This document shows positions 12,604 through 63,898 of a DNA stretch of 64,000 nt, one piece after another. Both the position numbers and the translations under genes were made by a program. Positions within the stretch are counted from its first letter, which is position 1; every line of letters begins with the position of its first letter. Source of the stretch: a virus (taxonomy: Duplodnaviria; Heunggongvirae; Uroviricota; Caudoviricetes); IMG/VR virus record IMGVR_UViG_2671180984_000014. One strand, 5' to 3'. The notes beneath the pieces were generated by a model. The model saw only the letters and a list, made by a program, of their open reading frames with translations, searched no databases and had not been told where the DNA came from.

Positions 12604-12739
12604 GTATTTTTAAGTCGCGAATGCTATCTTTTCGCATCATATTGACCTTTTAATCGTTCAGGCTTATAGTTCCGCCGTCGTAGCAAATTCTGCGACCGGG
12701 TTTAGCAGCCTGAATACTTACGCGGACAACCGCAGATTT

Positions 12740-12840
12740 CCGATATTGCGGTATTTTTGTGTCCGTAAACCACGTTACGCCCGAATTATGGTGGGGCGTG
12801 ATGGGGAGGCTTCGGCCTGCTGGTTTCGTAAGTGCCAGTC
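12740..12840 (+). ncRNA. c4: c4-type antisense immunity RNA (approximate bounds)
   Basis: Non-coding stretch between operator and icd containing block TTATGGTGGGGCGTGATGGGGAGGCTTCGGCCTGCTGGTTTCG, conserved in a second copy at 63759-63802; upstream hairpin plus T-run at 12730-12757. Confidence 0.35.
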
Positions 12841-12915
12841 TGCTAACCCCGTCACGTCCTGCCACCTGTTTAGCAGCGGGTCGCAGGTTGTTTATCAACT
12901 TACGAGGCCGTAACT

Positions 12916-16316: not shown

Positions 16317-16439
16317 TACAATCGTTGCGGGTGCTTGAGGCTATCTGCTTCAGGCATTACCCGAAAAGCAGATAGAAGAAAGCCCCAGATAACATTACGC
16401 GTCCTGCAAGACGCTTAACATTAATCTGAGGCCACATCT

Positions 16440-16646
16440 ATGCTTAGCATACGTAGATTAGCCTCTTACCGACCAAAAGGTCAAGGAGAAGCAGGCTATG
16501 AAGCAGCAAAAAGCGATGTTAATCGCTCTGATCGTCATCTGTTTAACCGTCATTGTGACGGCACTGGTAACGAGGAAAGACCTCTGCGAGGTACGAATCC
16601 GAACCGGCCAGACGGAGGTCACTGTCTTCACAGCCTACGAATCTGA
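16440..16646 (+). CDS. mok: mok-like overlapping reading frame of the hok locus
   Basis: 68-codon frame starting upstream of hok and overlapping it in another frame, the classical mok arrangement. Confidence 0.45.
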   Translation: MLSIRRLASYRPKGQGEAGYEAAKSDVNRSDRHLFNRHCDGTGNEERPLRGTNPNRPDGGHCLHSLRI

Positions 16647-33400: not shown

Positions 33401-33490
33401 AGAGTGGAACCTCTTTTTGCCAGACGTTCTGTGTCTTGTAAGGGGGACACTCGAGGTGTAGCTCATGACGTTTTGGGTATATTGCTCTAA
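30449..33490 (+). CDS. dmt: bifunctional DNA methyltransferase: N-terminal C5-cytosine MTase (intein-interrupted) fused to C-terminal Dam-like N6-adenine MTase
   Basis: GTG start overlapping hrdC stop; C5 motifs GGTP|[22 protein letters not shown]; Dam motifs KWAGGK and DPPY. Confidence 0.8.
30680..31702 (+). other. intein (341 aa) with LAGLIDADG homing-endonuclease core inside dmt
   Basis: Begins Cys ([20 protein letters not shown]), block [19 protein letters not shown] and [10 protein letters not shown], ends [21 protein letters not shown] followed by Cys+1. Confidence 0.8.
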
Positions 33491-33497
33491 TAAATTT
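33481..33497 (+). promoter_or_regulatory. C1-type operator, exact consensus ATTGCTCTAATAAATTT
   Basis: 17/17; precedes the tRNA/ban operon. Confidence 0.75.
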
Positions 33498-34162
33498 ATT
33501 AGTGTAATATTACCTCAATGAATCGTGATTTATAGAGCGATTTAGCTGTTAGCCGCGACAGGCGCGGCGGTAAGCATGGCTGGGCCTAGTCCTCCCAGAC
33601 AAACCACCGAGTTGCCAGGTTGACCATGCGCCTAAGTGGCAACGCCGAAGTGCGTTACGAGCGTCCAGTTTGCCCATCTTCGGGTGGGCGTTTTTTTCAG
33701 GGTTTTCGTCATGGTTAGCGACTTTGCGGCGGTTTAGAAACTGACCATTAAAGTAAATGCAAACGATGATCTGATGATGGTAGCGGCCTAAGAAGCCAGA
33801 TGCCATGGGGTATGAGTCGTCCCCCGTCAAAAAATCGACCGCAGAGTGTCCCCGTCTGTGTATTAGGGAACGGGGAGGCACAACAGGTAAGGGCGCTGGT
33901 GTGATTAACCAGATGAACGAGAAGGGGCCATCTGTTGGTCAGCGTCCTTTCCTGTTGCGTTTTCTTTTCAGCGTAACAGCGGTGCTTAACAGCACTTTGG
34001 GTACAGTTCCACGAATTTACGGGTATATCCCGTCATGCTGAAGGCGCTAATCACGCTGGAAGCCAGGGTTATGCATCCCCTGTTACCGAATTGCAGCCAG
34101 GGCGCGGTGCGCCGAAAAGCATACGGAGGTGGAAGCCCTCGCCGGAGACGTACCCGGCAAGT

Positions 34163-34237
34163 GATGGTGTAGCTCAGCGGTAGAGCAGTTGGCTGTTAAC
34201 CAACTGGTCGGTAGTTCGAATCCACCCACCATCGCCA
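34163..34237 (+). tRNA. tRNA-Asn (anticodon GTT)
   Basis: Acceptor GATGGTG/CACCATC, anticodon loop CTGTTAA, T-loop TTCGAAT, 3' GCCA. Confidence 0.8.
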
Positions 34238-34242
34238 CTTTA

Positions 34243-34328
34243 GGGGAGTTAGTCCGTAGGGGTAGCGGGGTAGACTGTAAATCTACTGTCATTGCGACTC
34301 GGGTGGTTCGACTCCATCACTCCCCACC
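34243..34328 (+). tRNA. tRNA-like element, anticodon loop CTGTAAA (GUA, Tyr-like) with long variable arm and irregular D-arm
   Basis: Acceptor GGGGAGT/ACTCCCC, perfect anticodon stem GTAGA/TCTAC, T-arm GGTGGTTCGACTCCATC, ACCA end; D-arm does not fold canonically. Confidence 0.4.
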
Positions 34329-34333
34329 ACATT

Positions 34334-34409
34334 GCCGATTTAGCTCAGTTGGTAGAGCAGTCGCTTTGTAAGCGAATGGTCAGCGGTTCGATCCCGTTAA
34401 TCGGCACCA
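34334..34409 (+). tRNA. tRNA-Thr (anticodon TGT)
   Basis: Acceptor GCCGATT/AATCGGC, D-arm GCTCAGTTGGTAGAGC, anticodon loop TTTGTAA, T-loop TTCGATC, CCA. Confidence 0.8.
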
Positions 34410-35282: not shown

Positions 35283-35519
35283 ATGCAGAACAATCCGAAC
35301 AAATGTCGAACGCTATGGGTGCGGTTATATATTTATGCCGTCCTCTGTTTGATTGTGTCACTGGTTCTGTATGTTTGGCTTTTGCCAAATATGATCTCAT
35401 CTAACAGCACAATACTTGTATTGTTGGGAGTCCTTCTCGCGCTCATTTACCCGGCTTTCGCAGTAGTCTTTTTTCGTGAAAAAACCAGGAAATTAATTAA
35501 TGAAAAAAACGTTGATTAG
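35283..35519 (+). CDS. small membrane protein (78 aa)
   Basis: Two hydrophobic helices; coupled to downstream lipoprotein gene. Confidence 0.4.
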   Translation: MQNNPNKCRTLWVRLYIYAVLCLIVSLVLYVWLLPNMISSNSTILVLLGVLLALIYPAFAVVFFREKTRKLINEKNVD

Positions 35520-36327
35520 TGCAGCGATTATTTTGGGTTCTTTATGTCTGACCGGATGCGATCGGGTAGAGCCAGGTAACGTAGGGATCAAAGTAAATAA
35601 GCTGGGGGATGATAAAGGTATCGGTGAAGTAGTTGGCGTTGGTCGCTACTGGACAGGCTTGAATACTGAAGTTTATATCTTCCCGACCTTTAAGCAAATG
35701 AAGACATACGATGAGCCGTTCAGCTTCCAGATGAGCGACGGAACAACCATTGGTTACCACATCGGCGTAGCCTACAAGGTTGATCCAGCAAAAGTCACAA
35801 CGGTATTTCAGACCTATCGCAAAGGTGTAGATGATATTACTGATACCGATCTACGCCAGAAGGTTGCAGATGCTCTGAACCGATTAGCCAGCAAAATGAC
35901 CACCGACAAATTTATCGACGGTGGCAAATCTGAATTGCTTGATGCAGCCCTTAAAGACATTCAGGAAGAAATGACGCCAATCGGCATTCAGGTGATGAGC
36001 CTCTCTTATGTAGGTAAGCCAGAATACCCGCCAACAGTTATTGACAGTATTAACGCCAAAGTCACGGCAAACCAAAAAACCCTGCAACGCGAGCAAGAGG
36101 TCAAACAACGTGAAGCAGAGGCCAACATGCTGCGCGCGGAAGCTGCCGGACAGGCTGATGCTATTCGCACAAAAGCCCAGGCCGAAGCTGATGCCATTCG
36201 TTTACGTGGTGAAGCTCTGCGCCAGAACCCCGGTGTTATGGACTTGGAAGCGATCAACAAATGGAACGGTACATTACCGCAGTATATGACCAGTAATACC
36301 GCTGTTCCGTTTGTTCCGGTGAAATAA
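35500..36327 (+). CDS. SPFH/band-7 domain lipoprotein (275 aa)
   Basis: Lipobox LCLTGC; prohibitin/HflC-like core and Ala/Glu/Arg-rich coiled-coil tail. Confidence 0.6.
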   Translation: MKKTLISAAIILGSLCLTGCDRVEPGNVGIKVNKLGDDKGIGEVVGVGRYWTGLNTEVYIFPTFKQMKTYDEPFSFQMSDGTTIGYHIGVAYKVDPAKVTTVFQTYRKGVDDITDTDLRQKVADALNRLASKMTTDKFIDGGKSELLDAALKDIQEEMTPIGIQVMSLSYVGKPEYPPTVIDSINAKVTANQKTLQREQEVKQREAEANMLRAEAAGQADAIRTKAQAEADAIRLRGEALRQNPGVMDLEAINKWNGTLPQYMTSNTAVPFVPVK

Positions 36328-36354: not shown

Positions 36355-36430
36355 GGCCCTTTAGCTCAGTGGTTAGAGCTGGCGACTCATAATCGCACGG
36401 TCACCGGTTCAAGTCCGGTAGGGGCCACCA
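36355..36430 (+). tRNA. tRNA-Ile2 type (anticodon CAT; could be read as Met without lysidine)
   Basis: Near-identical in architecture to E. coli ileX: acceptor GGCCCTT/AGGGGCC, anticodon loop CTCATAA, T-loop TTCAAGT, CCA. Confidence 0.8.
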
Positions 36431-63580: not shown

Positions 63581-63699
63581 TGTTTTTTAGCTACCGATGT
63601 TACATTGAACCTGACCTCTTGCGCCTTGAGGCATTTTCGGTTTATGCTTATCAGGCACCTCATTAAAACGGGTGCCGGGATTGGCCTCCCGCTTAAGTC

Positions 63700-63815
63700 T
63701 AAGGCGATACAGACGCCGCTCGCGTCTTTTTTTGTATCGGCGTACACGCACACCTCTACAATGGTGGGCTGTATGGGGCTACCTTCGGGTAGGCTGGTTA
63801 CCTTGGACGCCAGTA
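63700..63815 (+). ncRNA. second c4-like antisense RNA (approximate bounds)
   Basis: Hairpin plus T-run at 63706-63731, then block CAATGGTGGGCTGTATGGGGCTACCTTCGGGTAGGCTGGTTACC homologous to 12786-12828. Confidence 0.35.
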
Positions 63816-63898
63816 AGGCCAACTCCGTACAGTCCACCGCCAGCAAGATTGGTCTCTTCTGCGGTGGTTACATACCAACGTCTAAGGAGGCTGCCAAT

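Follow-up and report, generated by a model that had tools for sequence, protein, structure and literature searches.

A tRNA-Tyr(GUA) gene with a shifted D-arm register between tRNA-Asn and tRNA-Thr of a P1-like phage

Between the tRNA-Asn and tRNA-Thr genes of a P1-like virus lies a tRNA-like element with an irregular D arm, and the question is whether it is a working tRNA-Tyr gene, a decayed copy or a signal of another kind. The element is located on the plus strand of a 64,000-nucleotide stretch of viral DNA, hereafter the window. An earlier note, made from the sequence alone, placed it at 34243-34328 and considered a class II tRNA-Tyr with an unusual D arm, a pseudo-tRNA and a tRNA-mimic processing signal. 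In our assessment, 34243-34329 is very probably a genuine, working tRNA-Tyr(GUA) gene of a P1-like phage or phage-plasmid that would sustain tyrosine decoding in lytic growth. The gene is already known and already annotated, and its family is experimentally characterised; the 4-nt connector with a re-registered D stem is the only under-described aspect.

Structure and identity of the element

The tRNA-Tyr(GUA) gene (34243..34329, +) is 87 nt long, is of class II and encodes its CCA, as assigned by ARAGORN, Rfam model RF00005 and public annotation. ARAGORN calls the element as tRNA-Tyr(gta) of 87 nt. In a search of the whole window against all Rfam families, the tRNA model RF00005 gave 41.9 bits (E = 1.7e-5), compared with a gathering score of 29; the three neighboring tRNAs reach 65-70 bits, well above this value. 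Predictor scores below pseudogene level, which the earlier note had named as grounds for dismissing the element, were not what ARAGORN and Rfam returned.

The full layout, as read from the sequence, is GGGGAGU-UAGU-CCGU-AGGGGUA-GCGG-G-GUAGA-CUGUAAA-UCUAC-UGUCAUUGCGACUCG-GGUGG-UUCGACU-CCAUC-ACUCCCC-A-CCA. The acceptor stem GGGGAGU (34243..34249, +) forms seven perfect pairs with ACUCCCC (34319-34325) and is followed by the discriminator A73 at 34326 and by CCA at 34327-34329. The connector from the acceptor stem to the D stem, UAGU (34250..34253, +), has 4 nt and is treated by cmscan as a 2-nt insertion after position 9. The D arm (34254..34268, +), as placed by the covariance-model alignment and the minimum-energy fold, consists of the stem CCGU (34254-34257) with GCGG (34265-34268) and the loop AGGGGUA (34258-34264). 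The anticodon arm (34270..34286, +) has the stem GUAGA/UCUAC and the loop CUGUAAA (34275-34281), with the anticodon GUA at 34277-34279. The long variable region UGUCAUUGCGACUCG (34287..34301, +) comprises 15 nt with a 3-bp stem GUC/GAC, and the T arm (34302..34318, +) has the stem GGUGG/CCAUC and the loop UUCGACU. The plus-strand location between tRNA-Asn and tRNA-Thr, the perfect 7-bp acceptor stem with its ACCA end, the perfect anticodon stem with the loop CTGTAAA, the long variable arm and the T arm are all as the earlier note had described them. Its start at 34243 is also correct; its end at 34328 omitted the last A of CCA and is moved to 34329.

Outside the D region, the element has the features of a class II tRNA-Tyr: an acceptor stem of 7 bp that includes G1-C72 and is followed by the discriminator A73; a 7-nt anticodon loop in which GUA is flanked by U33 and by a purine at position 37; a stemmed long variable arm (15 nt, the criterion being at least 10 nt); and a T arm that has the G53-C61 pair and a UUCRA loop. 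The tyrosine identity elements A73, G34, U35, G1-C72 and the long variable arm are all present in the window copy, following the identity rules for tyrosine tRNAs (PMC9976931).

The host tRNA-Tyr shares several of these features. The E. coli sequence (tyrT/tyrV/tyrU), which has a 100% match annotated as tRNA-Tyr in 5426 of 5426 genomes, is likewise of class II, with GUA in CUGUAAA, A73, G1-C72, the variable stem GUC/GAC and a similar T loop. Its connector, however, has 2 nt, its D stem (CCC/GGG) 3 bp and its D loop 11 nt, where the phage tRNA has 4 nt, 4 bp and 7 nt, and the variable loop is 2 nt longer in the phage tRNA-Tyr (AUUGC vs AUC). In both, the stretch that starts at position 8 and ends before the anticodon stem has 20 nt, with the D stem shifted two positions in the window copy.

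D-arm register and the phage tRNA-Tyr family

The earlier note had described a D arm without conventional pairing. The arm in fact pairs regularly, as a 4-bp stem with a 7-nt loop on which the covariance-model alignment and the minimum-energy fold agree; what is unusual is its register, so that the note was partly right. Four connector nucleotides precede the stem, whereas the canonical acceptor-to-D connector consists of two nucleotides, U8 and N9 (PMC7609411). The D loop AGGGGUA contains the equivalents of A14, G18G19 and A21, and a single G separates the D stem from the anticodon stem. Three other arrangements were rejected. A host-type register with a 2-nt connector and a 3-bp stem leads to G10-G25 and C12-C23 clashes in the window copy; a 3-nt connector with a UCCG/CGGG stem fits the window copy but fails for phages Kha5h and T6; and a longer D stem, with a further pair formed by the fourth connector base and position 26, is not conserved in the family. 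The minimum-energy fold of the single sequence has a z-score of -0.67 vs shuffles, and folding energy alone is uninformative.

A sensitive BLAST search with the 87-nt tRNA-Tyr found homologues in 1524 phage records, 1359 of which cover at least 80% of the query. They occur in T-even-like, rV5-like, T5-like, Felix O1-like, podovirus and Enterococcus phages, mostly annotated as tRNA-Tyr, with some labeled tRNA-OTHER or tRNA-Val and some unannotated. A family alignment was made from 50 distinct sequences, taken from phage records and from two pattern scans of viral contigs; 45 of them were chosen by a rule requiring a connector of 4 nt and a D stem of 4 bp, and 5 were added by homology alone. The connector is UANN in 48 of the 50 members; the other two, from Cronobacter phage CR3 and phage SYGMH1, have one of 5 nt. 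A paired D stem is present in 50/50, a figure that partly follows from the selection rule; only the compensatory variants and the five homology-added members are independent of it. The usual stem CCGU/GCGG is replaced by CGGU/GCCG in six members and by CUGU/GCAG in three, which are compensatory changes of the second pair from C-G to G-C and to U-A, respectively. The D loop ends in GGUA, the pattern A..GGUA being nearly invariant, and the family also has in common the anticodon loop YUGUAAA, a stemmed variable arm and A73.

When the 50 sequences were set in the cloverleaf with the shifted D stem, 98.8% of cells were paired and 19 of 24 pairs had changes on both sides. The covariation score was 0.644, compared with 0.16 for shuffled alignments and at most 0.12 when partners were slid. 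Changes on both sides occur in all seven acceptor pairs, and covariation was found in 5/5 anticodon-stem pairs and 3/3 variable-stem pairs; the selection rule affects neither the four helices other than the D stem nor the compensatory D-stem variants. The window copy has the layout of the T5 and T6 tRNAs (UANN, a stem of the CCGU/GCGG type and one nucleotide before the anticodon stem) and is homologous to this family over its full length.

The T6 tRNA-Tyr (AP018814.1, 66468-66554) is also 87 nt long and is about 91% identical to the window copy (8 differences in 87 positions). The connector length, the D stem CCGU/GCGG, the variable and T arms, A73 and the encoded CCA are the same in both; the connector reads UAUC in T6 and UAGU in the window, and a few changes lie in the anticodon stem. 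The T6 copy is part of a T-even tRNA array beside the homing endonuclease segB, whereas the window copy lies in the Asn-Thr gap of a P1-like ban operon, with no homing endonuclease annotated in the 8 kb around it (MH160767 annotation). The T6 tRNA-Tyr has been probed by northern blot (Chihara et al. 2026, PMC13096335). Its overexpression rescues T6 from Septu EcB88, and deletion of the T6 tRNA region sensitizes the phage to Septu (PMC13096335). Septu cleaves the host tRNA-Tyr and also the T6 tRNA-Tyr, the latter at C48 in the variable arm; being itself cleaved, the T6 tRNA-Tyr protects only when abundant (PMC13096335). By our own position count, C48 of the T6 tRNA-Tyr corresponds to C 34290 of the window.

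The T5 tRNAY(GUA) (AY543070, 35340-35427) has the same architecture as the window copy and aligns with it end to end, with an identical variable arm, UGUCAUUGCGACUCG. It differs in its length of 88 nt, in its D stem CUGU/GCAG, which is one of the compensatory variants, and in a different acceptor stem with G1-U72. In T5-like phages the tRNA-Tyr is driven by a strong promoter of its own. According to the T5 GenBank record, tRNAY with a replaced anticodon is an effective amber suppressor. The tRNA-Tyr of T5 and SP15 rescues phage from retron-Eco7, the PtuAB effector of which depletes host tRNA-Tyr, and rescue is lost with mutations in the anticodon or the stems (Azam et al. 2024, PMC11555353). 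Direct tRNA cleavage by the PtuAB of retron-Ec78 was not reproduced in vitro in a later structural study (PMC12819146), so that the mechanism of tRNA-Tyr depletion is not settled. The tRNAs of the T5 region are interspersed with RNAs described as "stable RNA" or "tRNA-like RNA with unknown functions" (RNAI, RNAIII, RNA1, RNA2, RNA2H, RNAIV and RNA3; locus L372, 785-1145, 2309-2480, 3339-3584 and 4378-4450).

Several family members are poorly seen by generic tRNA models. At Rfam thresholds, none of the tested copies, from T6, the T5-like phage IrisVonRoten, a Felix O1-like phage, an Enterococcus phage and CR3, is reported. With relaxed Rfam settings, the best clan match of the T6 and T5 copies is tRNA-Sec, with 30.9 and 28.6 bits and a gathering score of 47, whereas the general tRNA model is the best match for the window copy, which is among the better-scoring members of the family. 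ARAGORN misses both 5-nt-connector variants (CR3 and SYGMH1) and the one tested Enterococcus-phage copy (A155). The 5-nt connectors are UAUUU and UAAUU; the copies lie at 201-285 of the CR3 locus (L132), at 201-285 of the SYGMH1 locus (L133) and at about 201-282 of the A155 locus (L131). The locus is unannotated in the SYGMH1 and A155 records, and the CR3 record annotates tRNA-Tyr. Since the functional T5 and T6 copies score even lower in Rfam, the modest generic tRNA score is a family trait tied to the connector and not a pseudogene sign. The connector lowers generic tRNA-model scores and probably contributes to patchy annotation in phage records.

Judged by the alignment, the odd D arm with its 4-nt connector and 4-bp stem is an inherited trait of the phage tRNA-Tyr family, not decay. 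No description of this connector or of the re-registered D stem was found in the literature searched. A pan-phage tRNA-Tyr clade might have the conserved connector of 4 nt, occasionally 5 nt, and the re-registered stem as a functional adaptation that would reshape the tRNA core or reorient the variable arm and could alter recognition by defense nucleases that target tRNA-Tyr, or by host processing or modification enzymes, while charging by TyrRS is kept; we regard this as rather unlikely.

Genomic setting and distribution

The tRNA-Tyr gene is preceded by tRNA-Asn(GUU) (34163..34237, +) with a 5-nt spacer and followed by tRNA-Thr(UGU) (34334..34409, +) with a 4-nt spacer, both assigned by ARAGORN and Rfam. 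A further tRNA with a CAU anticodon (36355..36430, +) is identical to P1 trnI (tRNA-Ile2), lies upstream of ban and is transcribed in the same direction. At 99.9-100% identity, the region matches Escherichia phage vB_EcoM-Ro157c2YLVW (MH160767, genus Punavirus), in which the identical tRNA-Tyr sequence is already annotated as tRNA-Tyr(gta); searches for papers on a P1-like tRNA-Tyr or on this phage found nothing relevant.

The flanks of P1 are about 95% identical to the window. In P1 (NC_005856), trnA (Asn) and trnT (Thr) lie 2 nt apart with no tRNA-Tyr between them, whereas the window has 91 extra bases. The site is otherwise like that of P1: dmt, the C1 operator and the dicF-like region lie upstream of it, the flanking genes are the same and trnI is identical. 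The earlier note's remark that only tRNAs for Asn, Thr and Ile are described for P1 agrees with the P1 record, and tRNA-Tyr is not part of canonical P1 gene content (NC_005856); the novelty for P1 that it implied falls away, the window being a P1-like relative rather than P1 itself, with a record that already lists the gene.

Upstream, the candidate promoters P1ban/P2ban (33465..33510, +) and the C1 repressor operator (33481-33508) are identical to the annotated P1 region, the operator being bivalent in the P1 annotation. The region corresponding to the P1 "dicF-like" region (window 33605-33707) is conserved at almost every base and ends in a terminator-like hairpin with a T run (33671-33690); no Rfam family reached its gathering threshold over 33605-33707. 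This hairpin is located between the ban promoters and the tRNA cluster. A scan for consensus promoters found none close to the tRNA cluster, and the transcription start is therefore inferred from P1 annotation only.

The Asn and Thr copies of the window diverge from those of P1 more than the flanks do, which suggests that the whole tRNA block has been exchanged. N4-like phages have an Asn-Ser-Thr order with 5-nt and 4-nt spacers equal to those of Asn-Tyr-Thr in the window; the array of the N4-like phage 3HA13 lies at 1001-1250 of locus L003, and that of Kha5h at 1504-1669 of locus L002. In T-even-like phages, Tyr is followed 4 nt later by Asn, and CMS-2020a phage-plasmids carry Asn-Tyr-Thr. 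The tRNA block that lies between dmt and ban resembles an exchangeable cassette, one that N4-like and T-even-like phages have as well, and the presence of shared modules in arrays of unrelated phages suggests cassette-like exchange at tRNA boundaries.

Among 5426 complete E. coli genomes, 269 have the tRNA-Tyr sequence at 95-100% identity. All of these copies are on plasmids, which measure roughly 70-115 kb, and none of the 5426 genomes gave a chromosomal match. Among the matches listed, the plasmid copies are annotated as tRNA-Tyr in 30 of 30, and many independent plasmids have the sequence at 100% identity. The Asn-to-Thr stretch matches 709 PLSDB plasmids, and in 237 of them the match extends over at least 80% of the stretch and therefore includes the Tyr gene. 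About one third of the matched P1-like plasmids thus carry tRNA-Tyr, and the gene is dispensable, because P1 and most P1-like plasmids do without it. A search of bacterial genomes (596 Gb) with the 14-base pattern GGTAGCNGNNNNNNCTGTAAA returned tRNA-Tyr in 2 of 120 among the matches listed, most being chance matches to a pattern that is too short, and was uninformative as to cellular tRNA-Tyr genes with this D arm.

Other features of the window differ from P1 or are reported here for completeness. Between upl and trnI, ORFs of 78 and 275 aa (35283-36327) replace tciA-tciB-tciC of P1. The 275-aa ORF belongs to the SPFH/Band 7 family (Pfam E = 9.7e-31), is labeled "putative serine protease" in MH160767 and had no PADLOC match. 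Rfam matches to the C4 antisense RNA were found at 12784-12869, with the a1/b1 target element at 12664-12716, and at 63757-63844, about 51 kb from the first and with an isrK-like RNA upstream (63655-63732). A second C4-type immunity RNA is unexpected in a P1-like genome, P1 being described with one immI c4 locus. A match to the sok antitoxin RNA (16329-16503; 114.8 bits, gathering score 59) suggests a hok/sok-type plasmid addiction module in the phage-plasmid.

Expression, alternative explanations and benefit

In the proposed course of expression, tRNA-Asn, tRNA-Tyr and tRNA-Thr would be transcribed as one precursor in lytic development or on prophage induction, probably from promoters of the ban operon that are repressed by C1 and lie about 750 nt upstream, or by read-through. 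With an intervening hairpin and no nearer promoter, the transcription route of the P1-like tRNA cluster is uncertain. Host RNase P and 3' processing enzymes would excise the tRNA-Tyr, the CCA of which is encoded, and the host tyrosyl-tRNA synthetase would charge it by way of A73, G34/U35, G1-C72 and the long variable arm. The charged tRNA would read UAC and UAU codons. Its likely benefit would be that tyrosine decoding is maintained when Septu or retron-Eco7 (PtuAB) deplete host tRNA-Tyr, as for the T5 and T6 homologues.

Tyrosine codons make up 30.3 per 1000 in the ORFs of the window and are not enriched, the E. coli value being about 28-29 per 1000. The codons ATA (12.1 per 1000), ACA (14.4) and AAT (23.8) look higher in these ORFs than in E. 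coli, which fits the Ile2, Thr and Asn tRNAs. The lack of tyrosine codon enrichment argues mildly against simple codon compensation for tRNA-Tyr, and a back-up or counter-defense role, as in T5 and T6, thus appears somewhat more likely than plain codon supply. A working tRNA-Tyr that is of benefit by codon supply alone, with no link to host defenses, is a possible but doubtful reading, and one that need not exclude the other: codon compensation is how phage tRNAs have classically been explained (see the discussion in PMC11555353), and the remaining tRNAs of the window fit it. Against this reading stand a tyrosine codon usage close to that of the host, the tRNA-Tyr genes that E. coli already has (median 3 per genome), and the demonstrated phenotype of the homologues, which is defense escape.

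The other readings deny the element a role as a tRNA-Tyr. That it is a pseudo-tRNA, an acquired tRNA gene now in decay whose product is neither charged nor used any more, could be argued from the non-canonical connector, from a covariance-model score below that of its neighbors and from homologues that are unannotated or labeled tRNA-OTHER or tRNA-Val. All stems are, however, perfectly paired with the conserved loop bases all present, the connector and D-stem type are those of the functional T5 and T6 tRNAs, which work despite even lower Rfam scores, compensatory changes occur in all five helices of the family, and many independent plasmids carry 100% identical copies; decay is very improbable. 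The tight packing between two tRNAs, with spacers of 4-5 nt inside a longer operon, would suit a tRNA-like punctuation mark, i.e. an RNase P or RNase E processing signal for the neighboring tRNAs or the downstream mRNA without use in translation. Yet P1 processes Asn-Thr without a tRNA-Tyr, a processing signal would have no need of the conserved GUA, A73, encoded CCA and covarying anticodon stem, and the SP15 homologue loses its function on anticodon mutation, which makes such a signal extremely improbable. The chance of a different identity, tRNA-Sec-like or for another amino acid owing to the altered core, is close to nil: it draws on the tRNA-Sec clan matches of the T5 and T6 homologues, but these lie far below the gathering score of RF01852, and the window copy itself is matched best by the general tRNA model. 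The tRNA-Sec model was rejected on these sub-threshold scores, on the anticodon, which is GUA and not UCA, and on an acceptor stem of 7 bp rather than 8-9 bp; moreover, T5 tRNAY suppresses amber codons once its anticodon is replaced, and rescue by the SP15 homologue needs the Tyr anticodon.

Of the possibilities raised by the earlier note, the class II tRNA-Tyr with an unusual D arm is the one favored by the predictors, by public annotation and by a covarying family that includes the functional T5 and T6 tRNA-Tyr; the pseudo-tRNA and the tRNA-mimic processing signal are unsupported, given the intact stems, the identity elements present and the 100% conservation on many plasmids.

The tRNA-Tyr gene has little value as a discovery, being annotated on hundreds of E. 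coli plasmids, with the functions of its T5 and T6 homologues already published. Its occurrence on about one third of the matched P1-like plasmids, as a tRNA-Tyr of the type that aids the escape of T5 and T6, suggests that temperate phage-plasmids may share this counter-defense.
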